Positions 2,380-39,541 of a stretch of DNA of 64,000 bases are shown here, piece after piece. The notes under the pieces are model-generated. The model searched no databases. It worked only from the letters and a program-made list of their open reading frames with translations, and was not told the DNA's origin. Each line of letters opens with the position of its first letter. Within the stretch, counting starts at the first letter, position 1. The stretch lies in contig JBHGAY010000008.1 in the NCBI GenBank assembly GCA_041946735.1, forward strand, positions 32,001-96,000, read 5' to 3'. The translations under genes and the position numbers were made by a program. Source of the DNA: Candidatus Eiseniibacteriota bacterium. Lineage in GTDB: Bacteria > Eisenbacteria > RBG-16-71-46 > CAIMUX01 > VGJL01.

Positions 2380-4290
2380 CTACATCCGGTCGGGCGCCTC
2401 GACGGTGAGAATCCCGAGGCCTCGCCGCAGCGCCTGCGCGACGCAGAGCGAGAGCTGCAGGCGGGCAAGCACGGTCGCCTCCTCCGGCGCGTCGAGCACG
2501 CGGTGCGCGTGGTAGAAGCGGGCGTAGGCGCGGGTGAGCTCGAGGAGGTGGTTCGCGACCGGAGCGGCCGAGAGCTGCCTCCAGCCGAGATGGATCATCG
2601 TGGGGAATTCGAGAAGCCGCAGGGCCAGCTCCCGCTCCTCGGGCGAGCCGAGGCGGGCGTAATCGACCCGCTCCGGCCGCACGGCCGCGTAGACCCCGGC
2701 CGGCGCGTCGGTCGCCGGCACGAGGTCCTCCTCGCGGATCGTCCCTCGCTCGAGCCCCTTGCGCACGATGCCGCAGATCCGCGCGTGGCTGTATTGAATC
2801 GCGGGCCCGGTGTCCCCCTCGAACGAGAGCTTCTCCTTCGGATCGAAGACGATGTTCTTCTCGTTGCTCACCTGCAGCAGGTAGACCTTGACCGCTCCCT
2901 GGCCGATCGCCTCCGCCGTCGTCTCGATCCGCTCCGGATCGTCCCCGCAGTACCCGCCCTCGACGATGCGCGCCCGCGCCTCGCCGTGCAGCAGATCGAG
3001 CAGCTCGTCGATGTCGACCGCCGTCCCTTCCCGGGACTTGAGCTTGCCGAGCCCGCCGGGAAGGTTCACCAGGCCGTAGGAGACGTGCTGCAGACCGGAG
3101 GCCCACGGATGCCCGAGCAGCTCGAGGATCGCGAAGAGATTCCTGAAGTGCAGGTCCTGCTCCGAGGCGACGACGTAGAGCGAGCGCGCGGCCGCGTAGT
3201 CGCGCTGCTTCTGCACCGCCGTCCCGATATCCTGGGTGATGTAGACCGCCGTGCCGTCGGATCGCAGGACGAGCTTGTCCTGCAGGCCCTTCGTCTCGAG
3301 CTTCGCCCAGACGGAGCCGTCCTCCTTGCGGTAGAAGACTCCCTTCGCAAGACCGCGCTCCACCTCCGCCTTGCCGACGAGCCAGGTGGCGCTTTCGAAG
3401 TACCAGCGATCGAAGCGGCAGCCGAGCCGCTCGTACGTCTCGCGGAAACCTTCGTAGACCCACTCGTTCATCATCGCCCAGAGCTTGAGGATCTGCGGAT
3501 CGCCGTCCTCCCAGCGGCGCAGGATCGCCTGCGCCTTGCCCATCCATTCGGATACGGCGAGGAAGCGCTCCTCCACCTCCTCGCGCCGCTCGCGATCGAG
3601 CTTCGAGAGGTCGATCCCCTCACGCTCGAGCCACGCCGCCTGCTCCTCCTTCAGGGCGGCATTGAAACGGACGTAGTAGCGTCCGACGAAATGGTCCCCC
3701 TTCTCGCCGGTCTTCGACGGCGTCTCCTCGCCGCCCCACGTCATGTAGGCGAGCATCGACCGGCAGATGTGGATGCCGCGATCGTTCACGAGATTCAGCC
3801 GCACGACCTCGTGCCCCGCCGCTTCCAGCAGGTTGGAGAGGCTCATGCCGATCGCGCTGTTTCGCACGTGCCCGAGATGGAGCGGCTTGTTCGTGTTCGG
3901 GCTCGAATACTCGACGAGCACGCGGGAGCCGGCGCCTGCCGTCAGGCTGCCGAAGGAGGCCCCTTCCTCGGCCGCGCAGCGGCAGACGGCCGCGAGCAGC
4001 GAGTCGGTCCGGAAGCGAAGGTTCACGAAGCCGCCGGCCGGGCGGGCCCATTCGAGGATGAGGCCGGGCGCCATCTCCTTCCCCGGCGCCAGGGCCTCGC
4101 TCCATCGAGCGGCGATCTCCTGGGGGGGCCGGCCGAGCGCGCGCGCGAGCGGGAACGCGGCGATCGCGACGTCCCCCAGATCGAGCGAGGGAGGGCGTGT
4201 GAGGACCGGCTCGAAATCGGCGACCGGCTCCGGAAGCCGGCGGACCAGCTCCTCCTTCAGGGCTTTGAGGATCTCCTCGATGCGGGGCAT
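2380..4290 (-). CDS. argS: Arginine--tRNA ligase
   Basis: VEYSSPNTNKPLHLGHVRN (HIGH motif), NDRGIHIC, LRSDGTAVYITQDIG, KLKSREG, GDTGPAIQYSHAR, C-terminal LGI..PDRM. Confidence 0.97.
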   Translation of the reverse strand: MPRIEEILKALKEELVRRLPEPVADFEPVLTRPPSLDLGDVAIAAFPLARALGRPPQEIAARWSEALAPGKEMAPGLILEWARPAGGFVNLRFRTDSLLAAVCRCAAEEGASFGSLTAGAGSRVLVEYSSPNTNKPLHLGHVRNSAIGMSLSNLLEAAGHEVVRLNLVNDRGIHICRSMLAYMTWGGEETPSKTGEKGDHFVGRYYVRFNAALKEEQAAWLEREGIDLSKLDRERREEVEERFLAVSEWMGKAQAILRRWEDGDPQILKLWAMMNEWVYEGFRETYERLGCRFDRWYFESATWLVGKAEVERGLAKGVFYRKEDGSVWAKLETKGLQDKLVLRSDGTAVYITQDIGTAVQKQRDYAAARSLYVVASEQDLHFRNLFAILELLGHPWASGLQHVSYGLVNLPGGLGKLKSREGTAVDIDELLDLLHGEARARIVEGGYCGDDPERIETTAEAIGQGAVKVYLLQVSNEKNIVFDPKEKLSFEGDTGPAIQYSHARICGIVRKGLERGTIREEDLVPATDAPAGVYAAVRPERVDYARLGSPEERELALRLLEFPTMIHLGWRQLSAAPVANHLLELTRAYARFYHAHRVLDAPEEATVLARLQLSLCVAQALRRGLGILTVEAPDRM

Positions 4291-26175: not shown

Positions 26176-26370
26176 CCAAGATTTTCGCCGCCGAGGCGAA
26201 TCTTCCTTCGCAAGTTCGTTGTCCGGATGCTACTATCGACGGTTCGCTTCCTTGCGCCTTGCTCGACTGCCGAGCGGGGAGGCTCTCCTCCTCACGCCGA
26301 TCGAGCCGGCGCGACCGGGAACCGCGGCCGCCGGTCCCTTCGACTTCCGGGATGCAAAGGGAGTAGATCG

Positions 26371-27453
26371 ATGATGACGATGCGACCGCGCCTCCGCTTC
26401 GCCCTGCCCGCCCGTCTGGCTTCCCTCGCGACTCTCTGTCTGCTCATCGTCGCCGCCGCCAGCGTTCCCGCCGCGCGCGCGGGCGTTCCTCGCGTCATGG
26501 TCGGGGAGGACTTCGGCGCCACCTGGTGACTCTACTGCCTCTATGCCCGGTGCGGGCTTCAGGAAGTGCAGGAGGAGATGGGGCAGGAGATGGTGCATTG
26601 GGAGCTGCACCTCGCCGACGTGTTCGAGATTCCGGAGACGATCGCGCGCGCCGACTTCTACGAGCTGTACGGCCATCCTTACGTCCTGATCGATGGGACG
26701 ATCGGCGCCTTCGGGGCTCTCGACTGCGCGACCGCCGCCGACACCTACCGTCAGATGGTCCAGCAGCGGATCGAGGAAACCGGAGGGATGAGCCCGGTGG
26801 CGATCCAGGGAAGCTGGACGGTCGAGAACGGGACGATCTCGCTGCGTGCCGTGCATCGCGCTGTCGATCCGATGCCCGGATACCCGCTGCGGGCCACCTT
26901 CCTGATCTACGAGGACGGGATCCCGTGGTGTTGCGGGCACGGGCAGGACGTCTGGGACGGAGTGGTGCGACGAATTCGCGACATTCCGGTCGAGCTTGCC
27001 GCTCCCGGCGATTCCGTGGTCGTCACGGCCGAAGTGCCGGTCGAGGCGGACTGGAACGTCGACAGCCTGCACGCCGTCGCCTACCTGCAGGGCTCGGACC
27101 GGGACCGCGACATCCTGCAAGCCACCGTGCTCATCCGCGAACTGCCGGCGTTCGCGGCGGATCCTGGCGCAATGGCAGGGAAGAGCCGGTTTCTGACCCT
27201 GCCGAATCCGCTCCGGCCGGGTTCCCCGGTCTCGTTTCTCGTCTCGGAGCGTGCGGCGGGCTGGCCATTGCGCCTCGAGCTGTTCGACGCCGCCGGCCGC
27301 CTGCTCTACGAGCATCACGAGGGGGAGGCGGCCGCTGGCGTCCGCTCCTGGACGATCCCGCTGGACTTCCCGCGGAACCATCACGGAGTTTCGTTTCTGC
27401 GCCTCTCGACGCGTGACGGCGCGGTGGCGCGCAAGATCGTGCGCCTGGACTGA
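26371..27453 (+). CDS. Probable selenoprotein: secreted Omp28/thioredoxin-like protein (UxxC) with a T9SS-like C-terminal domain; in-frame TGA at 26527-26529
   Basis: ORFs 26227..26529 and 26566..27453 share a frame. Read-through gives signal peptide-VPRVMVGEDFGATW-U-LYC..., GHPYVLIDG (cis-Pro loop), LIYED..DGVVR..WN..LHAVAYLQ..ILQA (Omp28-like), then PNP...DAAGR...RKIVRLD. Confidence 0.8.
26530..26563 (+). promoter_or_regulatory. Candidate bacterial SECIS element
   Basis: CCT-ctat-GCCCG-GTG-CGGGC-ttc-AGG: 5-bp GC upper stem (26545-26557) with a G-starting apical loop about 20 nt after the UGA. Confidence 0.55.
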
Positions 27454-27751: not shown

Positions 27752-29377
27752 ATGTCGAAGAAGGGCCGCCGCCTTCGGCGTGCGCTCGCGATCCTCGTCT
27801 CTTCGCTCGTCCCGCTCGTTCCGTGCGCGCTCGTCTCGCTCGTTTCGCGCGACGCGGCGGCGGCGCGCGATCCGGTGATCGCCAACCCGGACAGCGCCCT
27901 GGCGATCGCGCTGGCCGGCATCGCCGGGGCTCCGCTCTCCCTCGAGGAGGCGCAGCGGCTCGCGATCGACCGATCGACCGATCTGGGGCAGGCTCGTGCC
28001 GCGCGGGTCGCGGCCGAGGGGGCGGCGCGCCGCGAAAGCGGCAAGTTCGATCCGGAGCTGTTCGCCGAGGTGTCGCACACGCAAGAGGACGCGTCGAGCG
28101 CCTCGCCGTTTGCCGGCGCGGATCTCCTGCGGACGAAGACGACGCTCGGTCTCGCCGGAGCGCGCATGCAGCTTCCGCTCGGAACGCGCCTGGAAGCGGC
28201 GATGACGACGACGCGTCTGCGAACGAACTCCGGCTTCGCGGCGCTCGACCCCGAATACGACGCGTTCGGCTCGCTCTCGATCACCCAGCCCCTGCTGCAA
28301 GGGTTCGGGGCCGGAACGCGGGCGCCTCTCGCCGCCGCGCAGATCGGGGAGCAGGCCGCGCGATCGCGTGAGGACGAAGCGACGCGTGCCGTGCAGGCCG
28401 ATGTGCAGATCGCCTACTGGGACCTCTATGCGGCCGAGCGGGACTACGCAGTGCAGAAGCTGATCGTCGGTCAGGCCGAGGCGCTCCTCGAGGAGACCCG
28501 CACGCGGGCCGGCGCCGGCCTGGTCGGCCCGAGCGAAGTCGCCAACGCGCGCGTGTTCCTGGCGGAGCAGAGGCAGGCGCAGCTCGATCGCGAGGAAGAC
28601 CTTGACCGTCTCTCCGACCGGATGGCCAGACTGATCGGCTCACGCCCGCAAGGCCAGGAAGGACGCTTCCGGCCGACCGACGAGCCGCCGAGCCGGTTCC
28701 CGATCGCCGGCGCCGACTCGCTCGTCAGGGTCGCGATCGAGCGGAACGAGGGGCTCCAGGCGATGCGCGAGGACGTGGTCGCCACGCGCACCCTCGCTCG
28801 CGGCGCCGCGTGGAACGCGCTCCCAGCGCTCGACCTCGTCGCCTCGGTAGGCGGCAACGGCCTCTCCGGGACGCCGCGAAGCGTGATCTTCGGCTCCGAC
28901 ACGCTCCGCACCTCGATTTCCGGGAGCGCTTCGGACGCCTGGTCCGATGTCTTCGGGCGGGACAATCCCACCTGGTCGGTCGGCCTGCGGATGTCGGTGC
29001 CGATCGGCAGCCGCGAAGGACGCGGCGAGCGCGACCGTCTTCGCGCCGAACAGGAGCGGGCGCGGTGGGCGGTCGAGGACGCCTCGCGCCGGCTCGCCGA
29101 TCAGGTCCGCGAGACGCATCGCGAGCTGGTCAACGCGTCGCGAAGGCTCGAGGCGGCGCGCGACGGCGTCGACGCCGCGCAGGAGCAGGTCCGGATCGGG
29201 ATGATCGAATACCGCAACGGACGGACGACCGCCTTCGAGCTCGTGCGGCTCGGAGCCGACGTGGCCTCCGCGCAACGCCGCTACTCGCAGGCGCTCGTCC
29301 GCGCCGCGCAGGCGGCCGCCAAGCTGTCGCTTCTCACCTCGGGCGGGTATCCGGGGGAAACAGGAGGATCCCGATGA
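27752..29377 (+). CDS. TolC family outer membrane efflux protein
   Basis: Signal peptide, LSLEEAQRLAI, ITQPLLQG, AYWDL, LPALDL, W.VGL.MSVPIG, EYRNGRTT. Confidence 0.9.
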   Translation: MSKKGRRLRRALAILVSSLVPLVPCALVSLVSRDAAAARDPVIANPDSALAIALAGIAGAPLSLEEAQRLAIDRSTDLGQARAARVAAEGAARRESGKFDPELFAEVSHTQEDASSASPFAGADLLRTKTTLGLAGARMQLPLGTRLEAAMTTTRLRTNSGFAALDPEYDAFGSLSITQPLLQGFGAGTRAPLAAAQIGEQAARSREDEATRAVQADVQIAYWDLYAAERDYAVQKLIVGQAEALLEETRTRAGAGLVGPSEVANARVFLAEQRQAQLDREEDLDRLSDRMARLIGSRPQGQEGRFRPTDEPPSRFPIAGADSLVRVAIERNEGLQAMREDVVATRTLARGAAWNALPALDLVASVGGNGLSGTPRSVIFGSDTLRTSISGSASDAWSDVFGRDNPTWSVGLRMSVPIGSREGRGERDRLRAEQERARWAVEDASRRLADQVRETHRELVNASRRLEAARDGVDAAQEQVRIGMIEYRNGRTTAFELVRLGADVASAQRRYSQALVRAAQAAAKLSLLTSGGYPGETGGSR

Positions 29378-30600
29378 AGCCGATGCGGAAGCCGTTGTCT
29401 CTGTCGCTGCCGCTGCCGCTGCTGCTTGCGGTGCTCGCGCTCCCGATGGCTCTGTCCTTCGGCTGCTCGAAGAAGGAGGCGGGAAAGAAGGGGGCCGCCT
29501 TCGCGATGCCCCCCACGCCGGTCGAGATCGCGGTCGCCGGCTCGCGGAGCGTTGCCGACGTCTTCGAGGCGGTCGGCACGATCGAGGCGAGAAACGCGAT
29601 CACCGTCGTCTCCGAGATCGACGGCGTCGTCCGGGAGATCCCGTTTCGGGAGGGGGATCCGATCCGCAAGGGAATGCTGATCGCGCGCATCGACGACGAC
29701 CAGCTCGCGGCGGAGGTCGCGAGGACGGAGGCGCTGCGCGATCAGAGCCGTTCGAACTACGAACGGGTGAAGGCGGTCGTCGAGCAGGGAGCGGGAGCTT
29801 CTCAGGACCTCGACGACGCCGCGGCGGCGTTGAAGGTCGCCGAGGCGAATCTCTCCTACGCCCAGGCGCGATTGAAGAAGGCGCGGATCACGGCGCCGTT
29901 CGACGGCGTCATCGGATCGCGGCGGGTGAGTCCCGGGGCGTTCGTCCGGGCGGGCGATGCGCTCACCGATCTCGCGCAGCTCGACCATATCCGCGTGCAC
30001 TTCGCAGTCCCGGAGCGTTACCTGGGCAAGCTGTCGAAGGGAGCGGCGGTGGCGATCTCGACGACCGCCTATCCTGGCGAGCACCTCGACGGGACGATCG
30101 AGGTCATCGATCCGGTGCTCGATCCGGACACGCGCTCCGCGCAGATCGTGGCGGATGCCGAGAACCTGGGAGGGAGGTTCCGCCCAGGAATGTCGGCGAA
30201 CGTGCAGGCGGTGCTCAGCCAGCGGGCGAACGCGCTCACGATCCCCAACGAGGCGGTCTTCGTCGAGGGAAGCCAGGCGTTCGTCTTCGTGATCCAGGCG
30301 GACAGCACGGTCACACGCGCGCCGCTGCAGCTCGGAACGAGGCAGGCGGACGTGGTCGAGGTTCTTCAGGGCCTCGAGCCGGGCGCCCGGGTCGTGCGCG
30401 CCGGTCACCAGAAGCTCTACGACGGGGCGAAGGTGATGCCGGTCGTCAGTCAGCCGGCCCAGGCGTCGGACGCCGGCTCGAACACTGGCGCCGCCGGTGG
30501 CGCGGGCGGCGACGGGGGCGGCACCGCTGGCACCGCGAGCGGCGATGAAGACGCCGCCGCGGACGGCAAGGGAGTCGTGATGGAGGCGGCCTCGCGATGA
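29374..30600 (+). CDS. RND efflux periplasmic adaptor (membrane fusion protein), lipoprotein
   Basis: ATG 29374 overlaps the TolC stop. Lipobox SFGC, VSEIDGVV..I.F.EGD, ITAPFDGVIG, FRPGMSA, GLEPGARVV..G. Confidence 0.92.
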   Translation: MKPMRKPLSLSLPLPLLLAVLALPMALSFGCSKKEAGKKGAAFAMPPTPVEIAVAGSRSVADVFEAVGTIEARNAITVVSEIDGVVREIPFREGDPIRKGMLIARIDDDQLAAEVARTEALRDQSRSNYERVKAVVEQGAGASQDLDDAAAALKVAEANLSYAQARLKKARITAPFDGVIGSRRVSPGAFVRAGDALTDLAQLDHIRVHFAVPERYLGKLSKGAAVAISTTAYPGEHLDGTIEVIDPVLDPDTRSAQIVADAENLGGRFRPGMSANVQAVLSQRANALTIPNEAVFVEGSQAFVFVIQADSTVTRAPLQLGTRQADVVEVLQGLEPGARVVRAGHQKLYDGAKVMPVVSQPAQASDAGSNTGAAGGAGGDGGGTAGTASGDEDAAADGKGVVMEAASR

Positions 30601-33600
30601 AGCTCTCCGAGATTTCGATCCATCGTCCCGTCTTCGCGACGGTCATGAGTCTCGCGATCCTCCTCTTCGGGGTGATCTCGTTCCTGCGGCTGCCGGTCCG
30701 CGAGTATCCCGACATCGATCCGCCGATCGTCTCGATCACGACGTTCTATCGGGGCGCGAGCCCGAGCGTGGTCGAGACGGAGATCACCAACGTGCTCGAG
30801 GAGCAGCTCGCGACGATCGAGGGGGTCAAGACCCTGACCTCGTCGAGCCGCGAGCAGGGATCGGTCATCACGATCGAGTTCGAGCTGGGGCGCGATGTCG
30901 ACGAAGCGTCGAACGACGTCCGCGACCGCGTCTCGCGCGTGCGTAGCTCGCTCCCGCGCGAGGCGGATGATCCGGTCGTCGCCAAGATCGACGCCGACGC
31001 CCAGCCGATCTTCTGGATCGCGCTCTCGAGCGAGCGGCACGATGGGCTGGAGCTGAGCGACGTGGCCGATCGGATTCTGAAGGAGCGCGTGCAGAGGCTG
31101 CCGGGCGTCGGATCGGTCATCATCGGCGGCGAGCGCCGCTACGCGATGCGCGTCTGGCTCGATCCGATGCGGATGGCGGCGCACGGGCTCACGACCCAGG
31201 ACGTCGAGCGGGCGATCGCCGCCGAGAACGCGGAGATCCCGGGAGGCCGCGTCGAGGGGAGCGAGCGCGAGTTCTCGGTCCGCACGCGTGGAGACCTGCG
31301 GACGCCCGAGGAGTTCGGCGCGATCATCGTCTCGCAGAAGGGGAACGAGGCGGTGCACCTCGACGACATTGCCGAGGTGTCGGTCGGGGCGGAGGACGAG
31401 CGCACGGTGGCCCGCTTCCTCGGCAAGCAGGCGGTGGGATTGGGGATCGTGAAGCAGTCGACGGCCAGCACGCTCGACGTCGCGCGCGAGGTGCGCGACG
31501 CGATCCCGAGCCTGCAGGCGGCGCTCCCGGAGGGGATGACGCTGAACGTCGCCTACGACTCCTCCATCTTCATCACCGAGTCGATCCACGAGGTGCGCGA
31601 CACGCTCCTGATCGCCGCCTGTCTGGTGATCCTCGTGATCCTCGTGTTCCTGAAGAGCGTGCGCGCGACCACGATCCCGACGATGGCGATCCCCGTCTCG
31701 ATCGTCGGCGCGTTCGCCGTCGCCTACTTCCTCGGATTCACCGTGAACATCCTGACGCTGCTCGCCCTCGTGCTCGCGATCGGGCTCGTCGTCGACGACG
31801 CGATCGTGATGCTCGAGAACATCTTCCGCCATCTCGAGATGGGGAAGTCCCGCCGGCAGGCGGCGCTCGACGGGGCGAAGGAGATCGGCTTCGCCGTCGT
31901 CGCGACGACGATCGCGCTCGTCGCCGTCTTCATCCCGGTCGCGTTTCTGACCGGCACGGTCGGCCGCCTCTTTCGCGAGTTCGGGATCACCGTCGCCGTA
32001 TCGGTGCTGATCTCGGGGTTCGTCGCGCTGACGCTGACGCCGATGATCTGCTCGAAGATGCTGCGGCCGCTGCACGGCAGCGGGACCGGTTGGGCGACCC
32101 GCTCGTTCAATGCCTTCTTCGACGCGCTCAACCGGATCTACGACAATACGCTCCGTTTCGTGCTGCGCCGGCCGCTCGTGCCGATCGCCGCCGCCGTCCT
32201 GCTGATGGTCACGGCCGTCGTGATCTTCCGGATCCTCCCGAGGGAGCTGGTGCCGATCGAGGACAGGGGGACGGCGTTCGGCGTGGTGATCGCGCCGGAG
32301 GGCTCGACGCTCGAGTACACCGATCGGTACATGCGACAGGTCGAGGGGACGCTGATGGCGCAGCCCGAGACGAAGGGGCTCTTCTCCGCCGTCGGGCTCG
32401 GCTTCGGCGGTCCGGGACGGGTGACGAACGGCTTCTTCTTCCTGCAGCTCAAGCCGCGCGACGAGCGGGAGCGATCGCAGCAGCAGGTGGTCGCGTCCCT
32501 CTTCCCGCAGCTGATCTCGATCCCGGGCGTGCTCGCCTTTGCGATCAACCCGCCGAGCCTCGGCGGCCGGTTCTCCTCCAACCCGGTCGAGTACGTGCTC
32601 CAGGCGGAGAGCTACGAGGATCTGAGCCAGGCGGTCGGAATCATGATGGGCAAGGCGTCGCAGCTCGGCTACCTCGTCAACCTCGACACCGATCTCCGCC
32701 TGAACAAGCCGCAGCTCGACATCTCGATCGATCGGGAGCGCGCGGCCGGGCTCGGCGTCTCGGTCACGGACATCGGCTCCACGCTCGAGATGATGCTCGG
32801 CGGCCGGGTGGTGAGCGAGTTCAAGCGGGGAACGAAGCAGTACGACGTGATCGCGCAGATGAAGCCGGCGAACCGCGCGACCCCCGATGCGATCGACGGC
32901 ATCTACCTGCGGGGCAACTCCGGTCTCGTGCAGCTCGCCAACGTCGTCGACGTCCACGAGACAGTGGCTCCGAAGGAGCTGAACCACTACAACCGCGTCC
33001 GCTCCGCCACGATCACGGCGAACCTCGCTCCCGGAGTGAGCCTCGGGACGGCGCTCGACGCGCTCGACCGTATCGCCGCGAACGATCTTCCCCCCGGGAT
33101 CCGTCACGAGCTGGGAGGGCAGTCGCGCGAGTTCCGCGAGTCGAGCAGCAGCCTCTACCTCCTCTTCCTGCTCGCCGTCGTCTTCATTTTTCTCGTGCTG
33201 GCGGCGCAGTTCGAGAGCTTCGTCCATCCCTTCACGATTCTCTTGTCGGTGCCGCTCGCGGTGGTCGGCGCCCTGGTCTCGCTGCTGGCGTTCCACCAGT
33301 CGCTGAACATCTACTCGCAGATCGGCCTGATCATGCTGATCGGCCTCGTCACGAAGAACTCGATCCTGATCGTGGAGTACTCCAACCAGCTCCGCGCGCG
33401 CGGGCTGGAGACGCTCGAGGCGGTGCGGGAGGCGTCGAAGATCCGGCTTCGCCCGATCCTCATGACGTCCTTCGCGACGATCTTCGGGATCCTGCCGATC
33501 GCGATCGGGCTGGGCGCGGGCGCCGAGGCCCGCCGCCCGCTCGGGATTGCGGTCGTCGGCGGAATGTTCTTCTCGACCTTCCTCACCCTGATCCTCGTGC

Positions 33601-33761
33601 CGGTCGTCTACTCGCTCCTCGCCCGGTTCACCGGCGTGCGGGAAGAGGCCGGGATGAGCGAGCCGGAAGGGGAAGGGGGGGCGCGGGAGATCGGCGGAGC
33701 GCGCCGCGCAGGGGACGGCGGAAGGGCTGCGGTCCTCGGCACGGTCGAGCCGGTCGCGTAA
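30597..33761 (+). CDS. RND efflux transporter permease (AcrB/MdtC-like)
   Basis: SIHRPVFATV, LPVREYPDID.P, AIGLVVDDAIVMLEN, GRLFREF, GLVTKNSILIVE, RLRPILMT. Confidence 0.96.
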   Translation: MKLSEISIHRPVFATVMSLAILLFGVISFLRLPVREYPDIDPPIVSITTFYRGASPSVVETEITNVLEEQLATIEGVKTLTSSSREQGSVITIEFELGRDVDEASNDVRDRVSRVRSSLPREADDPVVAKIDADAQPIFWIALSSERHDGLELSDVADRILKERVQRLPGVGSVIIGGERRYAMRVWLDPMRMAAHGLTTQDVERAIAAENAEIPGGRVEGSEREFSVRTRGDLRTPEEFGAIIVSQKGNEAVHLDDIAEVSVGAEDERTVARFLGKQAVGLGIVKQSTASTLDVAREVRDAIPSLQAALPEGMTLNVAYDSSIFITESIHEVRDTLLIAACLVILVILVFLKSVRATTIPTMAIPVSIVGAFAVAYFLGFTVNILTLLALVLAIGLVVDDAIVMLENIFRHLEMGKSRRQAALDGAKEIGFAVVATTIALVAVFIPVAFLTGTVGRLFREFGITVAVSVLISGFVALTLTPMICSKMLRPLHGSGTGWATRSFNAFFDALNRIYDNTLRFVLRRPLVPIAAAVLLMVTAVVIFRILPRELVPIEDRGTAFGVVIAPEGSTLEYTDRYMRQVEGTLMAQPETKGLFSAVGLGFGGPGRVTNGFFFLQLKPRDERERSQQQVVASLFPQLISIPGVLAFAINPPSLGGRFSSNPVEYVLQAESYEDLSQAVGIMMGKASQLGYLVNLDTDLRLNKPQLDISIDRERAAGLGVSVTDIGSTLEMMLGGRVVSEFKRGTKQYDVIAQMKPANRATPDAIDGIYLRGNSGLVQLANVVDVHETVAPKELNHYNRVRSATITANLAPGVSLGTALDALDRIAANDLPPGIRHELGGQSREFRESSSSLYLLFLLAVVFIFLVLAAQFESFVHPFTILLSVPLAVVGALVSLLAFHQSLNIYSQIGLIMLIGLVTKNSILIVEYSNQLRARGLETLEAVREASKIRLRPILMTSFATIFGILPIAIGLGAGAEARRPLGIAVVGGMFFSTFLTLILVPVVYSLLARFTGVREEAGMSEPEGEGGAREIGGARRAGDGGRAAVLGTVEPVA

Positions 33762-34799: not shown

Positions 34800-37700
34800 A
34801 TGAACATCGCACCGAGGAAGAAGGCGTTCGAGTTCTCGCTTCACGGCTGGTCCCGCCCGCGACTGCTCCCGCTGCGCTTCCAAAGGCCTCCGGACTGGCT
34901 GATCGCGACGGCCGTCGCCGGCGCCGTGGTGACGGTCTTCGTGGTCCGGGAGGCGAAGGAATCGACGCTCCAGTCCGGCCTGCTTTCCCGCATCGCCCGG
35001 CAGCTCACCTACCGTGTCGAGCCCGGGCCTGGCGATGCCATCCTCTTTCCTTCGGAAGGACCGTTCGACATCTCGCGCGGATATGCGGCGATTCCGCGGA
35101 TCACGGAACGGCTGAGCGGGAGCGGGTACCGGGTGATCGCCCAGGCGCGGATGTCGGAGCGGATGCAATCGCTCGCGCGCCACGGCGTGCCCCCGGTCTA
35201 TGACGAGAAGACGCAGGCCGGTCTGACCATCCTCGATCGGCAGGGGAAGCGGCTGTACGAGGTGTCTTCCCCGCGGCGCGCCTACTCCGACTTCGACTCA
35301 ATTCCTCCGCTCGTCGTGAAATCGCTGCTGTTCGTCGAGAATCGCGAGCTTCTCGAAAAGGACCGTCCGCGCCTGAACCCCGGGGTCGAGTGGGATCGCC
35401 TTGTGCGAGCCGCCTTCGAGTTCGCTCTCAATCGCGTCGGCCTCGATCGCGAGCAGCCGGGGGGAAGCACGCTCGCGACGCAGATCGAGAAATACCGCCA
35501 CAGTCCGGAGGGAAGGACCGAGGGGCCGGGCGACAAGCTGCGCCAGATGGCGGCGGCGAGCCTCCGCGCCTATCGCAACGGGCGCGTGACGCTCGACGCG
35601 CGCCGCTCGATCGTGGTCGACTACGTCAACAGCGTCCCTCTGAGCGCCTATCCGGGTTACGGCGAGGTGAGCGGGCTGGCCGAGGGGCTGTGGATCTGGT
35701 TCGGCGTCGATCCGCGCGAGGTCGATCTTGCGTTGCGCGCCCCTCCGCTTCCGGCGATCGAGGAGGTCTCCGCCGATCCTGTCGCTGCGAGCGGCGGACC
35801 GCGGAGCGAGGCGCGCGAGGCGAGCGAGGCGCCTCCGGAGGCGGGACGAATCGGCTCGCGGCCAGGCGAGTTCGCCGCGCCCGCCGGCGGCCCGGCGATG
35901 TCCCCGGCCGAAGCGTACAAGATGATCCTCAGCCTGATCGTCGCGCAGCGACGCCCGAGCGCCTACCTGCAGCCCTCCGGCCGCGAGCAGCTCGAACGCG
36001 AGACGGACCAGTATCTCTCGCTCCTCGCCCACGATCAGGTGATTCCCGCCGGCCTCGCCGCGCAGGCGCGCGCGAGCCGGCTCCGGTTCCGCGACGAGCC
36101 GGTCGCCATCCCGCGGCCCCCCTTCGTCCGGAGGAAGGCGATCAACGAGGTGCGGACCGATCTGCTGCGCCTTCTCGGGGTCGACGACCTCTACACGCTC
36201 GATCGCTTCGATCTGATTGCGAGAAGCACGATCGATCAGCACCTCCAGCAGCGCGTGACGCGCCTGCTGCAGCGCCTGCGCGATCCTGCCTACGTCGACT
36301 CGGCCGGCCTGCGCGCGGAGCGCCTGCTCGACCGCGGCGACCCTTCCGCGGTGGTGTACAGCTTCACCCTCTTCGAGCGGACGCCGGAAGGGAACCTGCT
36401 GCGGGTGCAGGCGGACAACGTCGACGAGCCGTTCGACGTGAATCAGGGATCGAAGCTCGACCTCGGTTCCACCGCGAAGCTTCGCACGTTGACGCACTAC
36501 CTGCAGATCATGGCCGAGCTGCATCACGAGATGGCGGGGCGGCCGGCCGGCGGTCTCCGGCTCGAGAGCGGCGAGACGGCCGATCCGCTACGCCGATGGG
36601 CCGCCGGCTGGCTCGCGTCTTCGCCCGACACCACGCTGCCGGCGATGCTCCACGCCGCGCTCGAGCGCCGCTACTCGGCCAGTCCCGGCGAGTCGTTCTT
36701 CACGGGGGGCGGGCTCCACACCTTCCACAACTTCACGAAGGACGAGAACGGCCGCATCATGACCGTCTCCGAAGCGTTCCGGAACTCGGTGAACCTCGTC
36801 TTCATCCGTCTGATGCGCGACATCGTGCGTCACGAGATGGCGCAGCTTCCCGCCTACGCTTCGGGGATCCTCGAGGATCCGAGCGACCCGGCGCGCCAGG
36901 AGTACCTCGCGCGCTTCGCCGACAAGGAGGGGAAGACCTACCTCGGGCAGTTCTGGAAGAAGTACCACGGCGAGCGGCGGCGTGGCGACCCGCTCGAGAT
37001 CCTCGTTCAAGGGATCGTGCCGACGCCGAAGCGGCTCGCGGTCCTCTACCGGTCGATCTACCCCGACGGCGATCTCGAATCGTTCGGAAGGTTCCTGCGG
37101 GCGCACCTGCCTGGCGCGGGAAGCGATCCGCAAGACGTCGCGGATCTCTACGACAACTTCGCTCCCGATCAGTTCACGCTCGACGAGCGCGGCTACCTCG
37201 CCAAGATCCACCCGCTGGAGCTGTGGCTCGTCCGGTATATGAAGGAGCACCCGGACGCGAGCTGGAAGGACGTCGTCGCGGCGAGCGAGTCGACGAGGCA
37301 GGACGTCTACGCGTGGCTCTTCAAGAGCACACGGACGAAGGCGCAGAACATCCGAATCTGGACGCTCCTCGAGGCAGAGGCGTTCGAACGGATTCACGAG
37401 GCGTGGCAGCGTCTCGGCTACCCGTTCGACCGTCTCGTCCCCTCGCTCGCCACCGCGATCGGCTCGTCCGCGGACCGTCCCGCCGCTCTTGCGGAACTGA
37501 TCGGCATCCTCGGCAACGACGGTGTCCGGCTTCCGAGCCGAAGCGTGACCGGCCTCGACTTCGCCGTCTCGACCCCCTACGAGACGCGGTTTGCGGCCGG
37601 CGAGGCGCAAGGGGAGCGGGTGCTGCCGCCGGCGGTCGCGGAGGCGGTTCGCGAGGAGCTGTTCCACGTGGTCATGGACGGGACGGCACGCCGCGCCTTC

Positions 37701-38120
37701 AACGACTACCGAGTCGAGGGGGAGAAGCTCCCGCTGCTGGGCGGGAAGACCGGCACGGGGGACCACCGGTACGAAACCTTCGGGCCGGGGCGGCGCCTGC
37801 TCGAGTCGCGCGTCGTGAACCGGACCGCGACCTTCGTCTTCCTTCTCGGCGACCGCTACTTCGGGACGATCACCGCCGTGCCCGGCGAGCGCGCCGCGCG
37901 CTACGACTTCTCGAGCGCGCTCCCGGTGCAGATCATGCGGATCCTCGCTTCCGATCTACGCCCTCTCGTCGACGCCGGCGTGCCGCCGCGCCGGCCGGAG
38001 CCTGCGCCCGGCCGTCCGGCCGAGGGCGAAGAGGAAGACGATTGGTCCGTCCCTGCGTTTTCCCCCTCGCCTGCCGCGGGCGCCGCGCCTGCCCCGGCCA
38101 TACTCGCCGTGGGGGACTGA
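34800..38120 (+). CDS. Large atypical bifunctional transglycosylase / penicillin-binding-like protein
   Basis: LLFVENREL, GGSTLATQIEKYRHS (GT51-like), GSTAKLR (SxxK), SVN, GGKTGTGD. Confidence 0.8.
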   Translation: MNIAPRKKAFEFSLHGWSRPRLLPLRFQRPPDWLIATAVAGAVVTVFVVREAKESTLQSGLLSRIARQLTYRVEPGPGDAILFPSEGPFDISRGYAAIPRITERLSGSGYRVIAQARMSERMQSLARHGVPPVYDEKTQAGLTILDRQGKRLYEVSSPRRAYSDFDSIPPLVVKSLLFVENRELLEKDRPRLNPGVEWDRLVRAAFEFALNRVGLDREQPGGSTLATQIEKYRHSPEGRTEGPGDKLRQMAAASLRAYRNGRVTLDARRSIVVDYVNSVPLSAYPGYGEVSGLAEGLWIWFGVDPREVDLALRAPPLPAIEEVSADPVAASGGPRSEAREASEAPPEAGRIGSRPGEFAAPAGGPAMSPAEAYKMILSLIVAQRRPSAYLQPSGREQLERETDQYLSLLAHDQVIPAGLAAQARASRLRFRDEPVAIPRPPFVRRKAINEVRTDLLRLLGVDDLYTLDRFDLIARSTIDQHLQQRVTRLLQRLRDPAYVDSAGLRAERLLDRGDPSAVVYSFTLFERTPEGNLLRVQADNVDEPFDVNQGSKLDLGSTAKLRTLTHYLQIMAELHHEMAGRPAGGLRLESGETADPLRRWAAGWLASSPDTTLPAMLHAALERRYSASPGESFFTGGGLHTFHNFTKDENGRIMTVSEAFRNSVNLVFIRLMRDIVRHEMAQLPAYASGILEDPSDPARQEYLARFADKEGKTYLGQFWKKYHGERRRGDPLEILVQGIVPTPKRLAVLYRSIYPDGDLESFGRFLRAHLPGAGSDPQDVADLYDNFAPDQFTLDERGYLAKIHPLELWLVRYMKEHPDASWKDVVAASESTRQDVYAWLFKSTRTKAQNIRIWTLLEAEAFERIHEAWQRLGYPFDRLVPSLATAIGSSADRPAALAELIGILGNDGVRLPSRSVTGLDFAVSTPYETRFAAGEAQGERVLPPAVAEAVREELFHVVMDGTARRAFNDYRVEGEKLPLLGGKTGTGDHRYETFGPGRRLLESRVVNRTATFVFLLGDRYFGTITAVPGERAARYDFSSALPVQIMRILASDLRPLVDAGVPPRRPEPAPGRPAEGEEEDDWSVPAFSPSPAAGAAPAPAILAVGD

Positions 38121-38266
38121 CCGCTCGCCTGCTCGCCCCTCGCGCCTGCTCGCTCGCGCTCCGCCGCGCGCGCCCGCGCGCGAGTCCGCGCAGCCCCTCG
38201 GCGCTGGTCTCTGCTAGAATCGAGGTCGTCGATTCGTCCCCTGCACATGCAAGAAGGAGCGAGAGC

Positions 38267-39541
38267 ATGATTCCTGCTTCGAGGATCCCGCCTCTGCTCG
38301 TCGCGGCCTTCGTCGCGGCGCTCCTCGGGTCGGTTCCGCCCCTGCAGCGGAGCGCGCGCGCGCAGGAGATCCCCGCGGGCGGGGAGTGCGCCACGATCCT
38401 CACCGAGGAGGGCGCTCGCCAGGCCATCGAGCGGGATGACCGCGGAGCGTACCGCCTCGACCCTCGCGACGCCGGTCCCTGGCAGGTGAGGACGGCGGTG
38501 CACGTGGTCCGGACCGACGAAGGGCTGGGCGGCCTGACGGAGCAGGAGGTCGAGCGGTCCCTCGAGAGGGCGAACGAGCACTTCGCCCCGCTCGGCATCT
38601 CCTTCGTGATGGAGGGGCCGATCGATCACATCGACAGCGACGCCTTCTACTACGACATCGACACCCTGGCGGAGATCGATCAGCTCCGCGAGACGAACGT
38701 CGTGGACCATGCGATGAACGTCTACTTCACGGAGAACCTCGCGAACGAGAACGGGTCGTTCTGCGGGATCTCCTCGTTCACCTGGAGCCCGCATCAGGGC
38801 GTTGTGATCATGAACGCCTGCATCCCGTCGATCTGGAACCCTTCCACCTTCAGCCACGAGGTGGGCCACTACTTCGACCTGTTTCACACCCACGAGACGG
38901 CCTACGGCCGCGAGTGCGTGGACGGCTCGAACTGCGGGACAGCCGGAGACCGTCTCTGCGACACGCCCGCCGATCCGGGCCTGAACCGCTGCGGCCCGAA
39001 CGGCAACGACTACTGCGTCGATCCGTACTGCGTCTACACCGGCGCCTTCGTCGATCCGTGCCATGGCGACCCCAACCATCCGGCGACCGACAACATGCTG
39101 GCGTACTCGAGGCCCACCTGCCGGACGGTCTTCACCCCGCAGCAGTCGGAGAAAGCGGCCGCAACGCTCGTGAATCTCCGGCCGGACCACATTCTCGATA
39201 CGTCGGGGGCGGAAGAGTGGACGGGCTCCGGGCAGGAGAGCAGCGGGCCGCCGCTGCTGCACGTCGCGGTCCGAAGCCCGGTCTCGCGGACGATCGCGTG
39301 CCGCATCGCGATCGCAGAGGATCGAGCCGTCACGGCGCGGCTCGTCGATGCGTCGGGGCGGACGGTCGCGCAGCTGACGAGCGCGGATGAGACGATGCCG
39401 GCCGGAACTCACGACCTGTTCTGGGACGTGGGCGGCCGGCTGCCGAGCGGGATCTACTTCCTACAAGTCGAAGCACGGCCGGCGTGGCAAGGCCCGACCA
39501 AGGCGGCGAAGGTCTCCCGGCCGATCGTCGTCGTGCGCTAG
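38267..39541 (+). CDS. Secreted M43 (pappalysin/ulilysin-like) zinc metalloprotease with a T9SS/FlgD-like C-terminal domain
   Basis: ATG 38267 after AAGGAG. Signal peptide, HEVGHYFDLFH (HExxHxxxxxH), GDRLCDTPADP, NMLAYS..C..FT..Q, DASGR..WD..LPSGIYF. Confidence 0.88.
   Translation: MIPASRIPPLLVAAFVAALLGSVPPLQRSARAQEIPAGGECATILTEEGARQAIERDDRGAYRLDPRDAGPWQVRTAVHVVRTDEGLGGLTEQEVERSLERANEHFAPLGISFVMEGPIDHIDSDAFYYDIDTLAEIDQLRETNVVDHAMNVYFTENLANENGSFCGISSFTWSPHQGVVIMNACIPSIWNPSTFSHEVGHYFDLFHTHETAYGRECVDGSNCGTAGDRLCDTPADPGLNRCGPNGNDYCVDPYCVYTGAFVDPCHGDPNHPATDNMLAYSRPTCRTVFTPQQSEKAAATLVNLRPDHILDTSGAEEWTGSGQESSGPPLLHVAVRSPVSRTIACRIAIAEDRAVTARLVDASGRTVAQLTSADETMPAGTHDLFWDVGGRLPSGIYFLQVEARPAWQGPTKAAKVSRPIVVVR

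Follow-up and report, generated by a model that had tools for sequence, protein, structure and literature searches.

The stretch of DNA analysed here (the window, 64,000 nucleotides) contains a plus-strand reading frame that runs from an ATG at 26371 to a TGA at 27451-27453 and is interrupted only once, by a TGA at 26527-26529. Does this internal TGA end translation, or does it encode selenocysteine (Sec), with the sequence on either side forming one gene? The original prediction took the latter position. We consider it highly likely that the locus is indeed one gene for an exported selenoprotein, with a SECIS-decoded UGA and a UxxC thioredoxin domain; its most likely role is that of an oxidoreductase outside the cytoplasm, for which export by the type IX route is plausible.

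A reading frame divided by annotation

With the internal TGA translated as U, the gene (26371..27453, + strand; 360 codons including Sec53, followed by the TGA stop) gave a 360-residue product, hereafter the window protein, carrying the motif GEDFGATW-U53-LYC, i.e., W52-U53-L-Y-C56. A Shine-Dalgarno-like AAGGGAG (26357..26363, + strand) can be read from the sequence 7 nt upstream of the ATG. Translation bore out the predicted single frame with one TGA, the Shine-Dalgarno AAGGGAG, the W-U-L-Y-C motif and the length of 360 aa, and the further features listed in the original prediction were all found, namely GHPYVLIDG (P103), ARC (C61), LDC (C119), PWCCG (C186/C187) and the PNP...DAAGR...RK tail. 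Homologues could be aligned to the window protein along its full length.

Gene callers split this gene, which speaks for a pseudogene or a recent nonsense mutation, where the TGA would end translation and either fragments or nothing would be made. The only public protein found for the gene (P0002; 100% identity, 80% query coverage) has 287 aa and starts at profile position 40, i.e., downstream of the TGA, as had been foreseen for a truncated annotation. A word-indexed protein search with the window protein returned nothing beyond this truncated product of its own gene. Among the best 150 library relatives, 104 begin after the Sec column, indicating that the family is systematically mis-annotated. 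Public gene calls lose both the signal peptide and the active site of this Sec family.

On one side of the gene lies a methyltransferase gene, and on the other an OEP/HlyD/AcrB efflux operon. The operon, just 3' of the selenoprotein gene (27752-33761, + strand), consists of genes for an outer-membrane factor, a membrane-fusion protein and an AcrB-type RND pump, and it is followed at 34800-39541 (+ strand) by two very long overlapping frames, the first (1106 aa) matching a transglycosylase and the second (1383 aa) weakly matching Peptidase_M43. A terminator-like site follows the gene upstream of the selenoprotein gene, and a sigma-70 promoter scan gave 0 sites. Nothing was found among the neighbours that would tie them functionally to the selenoprotein.

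The TGA codon, its hairpin and the decoding machinery

The codon at 26527..26529 (+ strand) would specify Sec53, the first residue of U-L-Y-C. We aligned 78 loci to the domain profile, comprising 60 chosen loci (52 flagged with one TGA and 8 flagged with none) and 18 further loci. TGA stood at the first-Cys column of CxxC in 68/68 TGA-bearing loci, and Cys occupied the same column in 10/10 TGA-free loci; the 68:10 ratio is a result of row choice and not a frequency, and the loci are kin, such that these counts overstate independence. Both the Cys and the TGA homologues that the original prediction proposed to look for were therefore present. The pattern that it had linked to a recent nonsense mutation, relatives that all carry Cys with an unconserved TGA, was not what the alignment showed. 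Conservation of the TGA column extended down to about 25% identity, and, judged from the aligned sequences, the placement of TGA at this shared column is far beyond chance.

The aligned loci include five more paralogues from the window's genome, 36-44% identical and with a single TGA in frame in each case; a sixth paralogue in this genome has no TGA and reads WCQYC at the motif. Translation of the six Sec genes of this genome placed U in the same W/x-U-x-x-C motif in every case (6/6). The TGA also recurred in independent DNA, a check suggested at the outset: contigs of three other studies (runs X2, X3 and X4) spanned the codon with 0 differences, while a fourth run (X5) had no coverage there. 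In two full-length library relatives, P0009 and P0026, the Sec column is occupied by Ala (as W-A-S-Y-C) or by Ser (as G-S-P-F-C), implying that the nucleophile has been lost or replaced in these proteins.

The family is concentrated in the order to which the bacterium belongs. Matches at E<=1e-5 were found in 35/41 related genomes (the window's own included), among them all 34 of the other same-order genomes, which spread over four families, and in 0/6 genomes from other families of the class. In a phylum sample of 121 genomes, 24 had a match at E<=1e-20, made up of the window's genome, 20/20 others of the order and 3/100 from other families; among the 106 matches listed in this sample, 75 had one TGA and 31 had none. 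A locus search with the window's own domain as query returned no relative, and the same search with a paralogue as query returned 2 loci.

Downstream of the UGA lies a SECIS-like hairpin, GCCCG-GUG-CGGGC (26545..26557, + strand), recognized by paralogue conservation, covariation and synonymous-codon bias. It starts about 15-16 nt past the UGA and places its apical loop GUG at +21-23. The string CCCGGUGCGGG occurs 16 nt after the UGA in 6/6 own-genome Sec genes and is missing from the Cys paralogue. In a gap-free alignment of the 68 Sec loci, every one of the five core stem pairs was present in 55-65 sequences. At pair 27:35, 50 sequences had C-G and 14 had G-C; at pair 25:37, 48 had G-C, 4 had G-U and 3 had A-U. 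Covariation scored 0.191 compared with 0.089 in shuffles, a value attained in 0/500 shuffles and exceeding that of all slid registers. Because column 27 falls on the silent third position of an Ala codon and column 35 on the second position of a Gly/Ala codon, constraints on the protein can hardly account for this coupling. The four outer pairs of the hairpin were poorly kept (19-32 of 68).

Codon choice within the hairpin was biased in the same region. At the Arg position at +7, the Sec loci used CGG in 57/62 Arg codons and never CGC, whereas the remainder of the same genes used CGC for 44% and CGG for 32% of Arg codons. The third base of this CGG is the first loop base, G. The Gly position at +9 was encoded by GGG in 48/51 Gly codons, compared with 19% elsewhere in the same genes. 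Among the Cys forms with Arg at the +7 site, three used CGC and one used CGG. The selD gene of this genome served as a control; its UGA, too, is followed by a hairpin, and the loop of that hairpin likewise lies at +21-23. A figure legend of PMC2398784 highlights, for bacterial SECIS elements, a guanosine that is conserved in the apical loop.

It should be noted that the hairpin lies in the codons for A-R-C-G and that 4/10 Cys forms (L104, L105, L106, L108) keep a hairpin at the SECIS position, so the pairing could partly reflect the peptide and GC-rich codon usage. The hairpins in these four Cys forms may be fossil SECIS relics of recent Sec-to-Cys changes, or may arise partly from the encoding of A-R-C-A in GC-rich codons; three of the four have C instead of G as the first loop base. 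Scanning 26300-26800 against Rfam (E<=10) yielded one chance snoRNA match and no SECIS family, and the whole-region fold z-score (-0.94) was uninformative. The element offers an example of dual coding, in which 13 nt specify both A-R-C-G and a SECIS stem-loop, with the Cys of this tetrapeptide, Cys61, apparently also engaged in a disulfide.

The genome of this bacterium (4.89 Mb in 72 contigs, 94.8% complete) encodes the machinery for Sec insertion. The genes selD (388 bits), selA (479 bits) and selB (349 bits) all scored above their curated cut-offs, and a tRNA-Sec with anticodon tca scored 72 bits, also above cut-off, with the same tRNA called by ARAGORN. All four components whose presence the original prediction had asked about were therefore found. 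The selD gene (L001; G000:C2:108941-109867, - strand) itself encodes a selenoprotein, with one in-frame TGA (…CAG-U-ASK…). TGA is the stop of 1965/3195 stop-to-stop frames of at least 500 codons in this genome, which indicates that the organism does not generally read TGA as sense.

These results bear on two alternatives to Sec decoding. A pseudogene in the sense described above is extremely improbable given a TGA column kept in all 68 TGA-bearing loci across such divergence, a frame that is intact on either side of the TGA, constraint on the hairpin at the nucleotide level and an identical TGA in the contigs of the other studies. Reading of the TGA as Trp, Gly or Cys, through a changed code or near-cognate read-through, draws on the fact that the inserted residue is not decidable from sequence alone. 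However, TGA closes the majority of long frames and ends the window gene itself, the full Sec machinery and tRNA-Sec are present, the hairpin has a loop G and the same spacing as in selD, and the column is otherwise Cys; we regard this reading as very improbable. Conservation, hairpin constraint, Sec machinery and the use of TGA as an ordinary stop led us to reject both the pseudogene and the altered code. The TGA at 26527-26529 is very probably a real Sec codon located in the active site. Its UGA would be read as Sec by tRNA-Sec and SelB, directed by the hairpin at 26545-57 within the gene.

Domain architecture, relatives and export

The window protein begins with a putative signal peptide (residues 1-37; 26371..26481, + strand), read from the sequence as a basic N-region, a hydrophobic core and an A-x-A site, with cleavage probably between ARA and GVP. 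The structure model has a helix at residues 14-30, and paralogues show (A/S)-G/S-VP-K/R right behind the signal peptide. A thioredoxin-fold domain follows (residues 38-137; 26482..26781, + strand), supported by profile matching and by AlphaFold models. A profile built from an alignment of 18 family members matched two thioredoxins, 1fo5 (E 1.1e-7) and 1nho, in register at both CxxC and cis-Pro, and matched HBP35 weakly. The model of residues 36-256 had a pLDDT of 94.8, and the full-length model showed the thioredoxin-core elements E43-49, H56-73, E74-80, E104-107 and E111-114. The cis-proline of the fold is Pro103 (26677..26679, + strand), which aligned with vPt of 1fo5 and was invariant in the 18-member alignment and in that of tailed short-form relatives. 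All 18 members had Sec or Cys at the nucleophile column, together with the second Cys and the cis-Pro, and the last two were retained in 78/78 loci.

Outside the active site, Cys61 (ARC; 26551..26553, + strand) and Cys119 (LDC; 26725..26727, + strand) were both present in 64/78 loci and both absent in 14, with neither ever occurring alone. This all-or-none pattern makes a structural disulfide between Cys61 and Cys119 probable, as far as co-occurrence in sequences can tell. We considered whether Cys61 is kept solely for the hairpin and rejected this, as Cys61 and Cys119 come and go together and both are kept in Cys forms. Cys61 is constrained by the protein and by the hairpin alike.

The thioredoxin domain is followed by an Ig-like beta-sandwich of the Omp28/HBP35 kind (residues 143-253; 26797..27129, + strand), seen as strands in both models and supported by Foldseek and Pfam. 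This domain contains a vicinal Cys-Cys in W-C-C-G (residues 185-188; window 26925-26936), which was retained in 27/78 loci, in Sec and Cys forms both, and replaced otherwise. The C-terminal region (residues 273-360; 27187..27450, + strand) is a degenerate sorting-type beta-sandwich (T9SS type A/FlgD-Ig-like), assigned from TIGR04183, paralogue homology and the model. In the full-length model (pLDDT 87.5), it forms a seven-strand sandwich with a pLDDT of 80-91. The predicted architecture of a probable signal peptide, a Sec thioredoxin-fold UxxC domain, an Omp28/HBP35-like Ig domain and a sorting-type C-terminal domain is supported by both sequence and models. In the proposed protein, the cleavable signal peptide would lead into a thioredoxin fold with the Sec nucleophile in U-L-Y-C and cis-Pro 103, on which the Ig-like sandwich would pack, with the type IX sorting-type sandwich next to it.

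The original prediction suggested that this may be an undescribed family, which did not hold. The window protein is a distant relative of NF045500, the "Omp28-related selenoprotein", which corresponds to GOS_C of 2008. NF045500 scored 22.2 bits against the whole window protein, 20.3 bits against its domain alone and 53.9 bits against the best paralogue, compared with a cut-off of 200. Matches to NF045500 at E<=0.01 were found in 17/18 family members (best 6.5e-17), none of them above this cut-off. A score of 22 against a cut-off of 200 indicates that the window protein belongs to a separate, divergent branch. In a table of a 2026 review (PMC13188914), NF045500 appears under the name "Hypothetical protein GOS_C" with UxxC. 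The passages of PMC2398784 on GOS_C (Zhang & Gladyshev 2008) describe a Trx-like fold in which UxxC is conserved, count 74 sequences with Sec and 312 homologues with Cys, and as to function only suggest a thiol-based redox role. The window protein shares with NF045500/GOS_C the Trx-like fold, a UxxC with Sec first, many Cys homologues and a hairpin with a guanosine in the apical loop. These passages on GOS_C mention no signal peptide or secretion tag. We found no paper pairing Omp28 with a selenoprotein in the literature searched, and none linking selenoproteins with Eisenbacteria or with type IX secretion.

The profile-HMM searches that the original prediction proposed did give thioredoxin matches and, in relatives, Omp28 matches. 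Pfam Omp28 (PF11551) was matched at E<=0.01 by 11/18 family members and NF033782 (lipoprotein Omp28) by 12/18. Pfam at E<=1 on the whole window protein gave no family, PF11551 included, and NF033782 scored 10.8 bits against it (cut-off 150). In contrast to Omp28 lipoproteins, the window protein has a signal peptidase I-type site and no lipobox. The best sequence match of the catalytic domain was to small thioredoxins of the MJ0307 type (1fo5, 1nho; TIGR00411), with CxxC and cis-Pro in register, and 10/18 family members matched TIGR00411. However, MJ0307-type thioredoxins are cytoplasmic, single-domain Cys proteins without Ig or sorting domains.

The closest structural relative was HBP35. In a Foldseek search with the model of residues 36-256, HBP35 (5y1a) was the top PDB match (TM 0.82, E 7e-12), followed by 2axo, and it was again the top match for the full-length model, with 350 aligned columns. 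HBP35 and the window protein share a thioredoxin domain, a beta-sandwich and a C-terminal domain in that order, although HBP35 has Cys instead of Sec, is only 15% identical and comes from a different phylum. The build of a surface-exported thioredoxin is not new, as HBP35 is an experimentally known protein with the same three domains. Por-dependent secretion of HBP35 is the subject named in the title of PMC3120885. The window protein belongs to a known kind of selenoprotein, in a divergent branch that has expanded throughout the order and whose architecture for export resembles that of HBP35.

The role proposed for the window protein is that of a selenol/thiol-disulfide oxidoreductase acting outside the cytoplasm. 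It could instead be mainly a binding module for haem or metal or an adhesin, as has been described for Omp28 and HBP35, with the UxxC binding a ligand and no disulfide exchange. We know of no electron donor for an extracellular reductase, and the absence of a known external reductant would fit such a module, as would an Ig-like domain with a conserved W-C-C-G in many members. HBP35 of Porphyromonas gingivalis is described as a 35-kDa hemin-binding protein located on the cell surface, and the same source ascribes to it a thioredoxin activity that depends on two Cys (PMC2907840), the latter favouring catalysis. In addition, U/CxxC and cis-Pro are kept throughout the family as in catalytic thioredoxins, and many Sec members lack W-C-C-G. 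We consider a predominantly binding function improbable.

Evidence on the export route came from the tail and from the secretion genes. The original prediction had described the tail as a T9SS-like sorting domain. Against TIGR04183 (cut-off 23), the tail of the window protein failed, with 17.0 bits as an isolated domain and 13.3 bits in the whole protein, whereas paralogue tails passed with 35.5, 37.8, 27.3 and 28.0 bits. Pfam at E<=0.1 gave no domain for the window tail, unlike the paralogue tails, which matched FlgD_ig and Por_Secre_tail. The tail of the window protein was nevertheless homologous to the passing paralogue tails (E 7e-11). Two components of the type IX system scored above cut-off in the window's genome, PorU with 596 bits (cut-off 420) and SprA with 492 bits (cut-off 200), which makes type IX export plausible, and dozens of further open frames in this genome have sorting-type tails. 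A PorV-like protein was weak (111 bits, cut-off 250).

The failed TIGR04183 scores, the missing Pfam tail domain and the sub-threshold PorV match would all fit a real selenoprotein that is not type IX cargo, one that is periplasmic or leaves by another exit and whose C-terminal domain has decayed. However, the homology to passing tails, the modelled seven-strand sandwich, the recurrence of the tailed short form among relatives and the presence of PorU and SprA argue against such a protein, which we regard as rather unlikely. Type IX export of the window protein is plausible from its sequence and those of its paralogues. It would cross the inner membrane by Sec and then pass through the type IX system to the cell surface or the medium, a role and route that parallel those of HBP35, which has the same three-domain build with Cys.

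Paralogue expansion in the order

Genomes of the order contained up to 10 family matches each. The window's genome has a tandem pair (G000:C24:1209-1916 and 3430-4155; L022/L023), and two relatives (G022:C10:35-48 kb and G015:C7:841-853 kb) each have five paralogues within about 13 kb, of which one of the ten lacks a TGA. Long paralogues of about 700 aa (L023:187-1491, - strand; L026:1124-2428, + strand; L024:2215-3525, + strand) carry a middle region of about 330 residues that separates the Ig-like domain from the tail. This region matched no family at E<=0.1, with only the Cys paralogue L027 giving a weak DUF4159 match.

We tentatively suggest, as a possibility that is less than even, that this order of Candidatus Eisenbacteria maintains an enlarged repertoire of Sec thioredoxins that are exported to the surface by the type IX system, either alone or fused to the domain of about 330 residues, and that together form a systematic extracellular selenoproteome. 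Known bacterial selenoproteins are mostly cytoplasmic. Selenoproteins of the kind described here were first predicted in 2008; the more unusual aspects are their expansion across the order and their export tag. The family, which has expanded throughout an order of uncultured bacteria from soil and sediment, provides a well-supported case of Sec in a protein with an architecture for export. If the suggested selenoproteome is real, Sec would be used extracellularly in these bacteria because a selenol stays reactive outside the cell.
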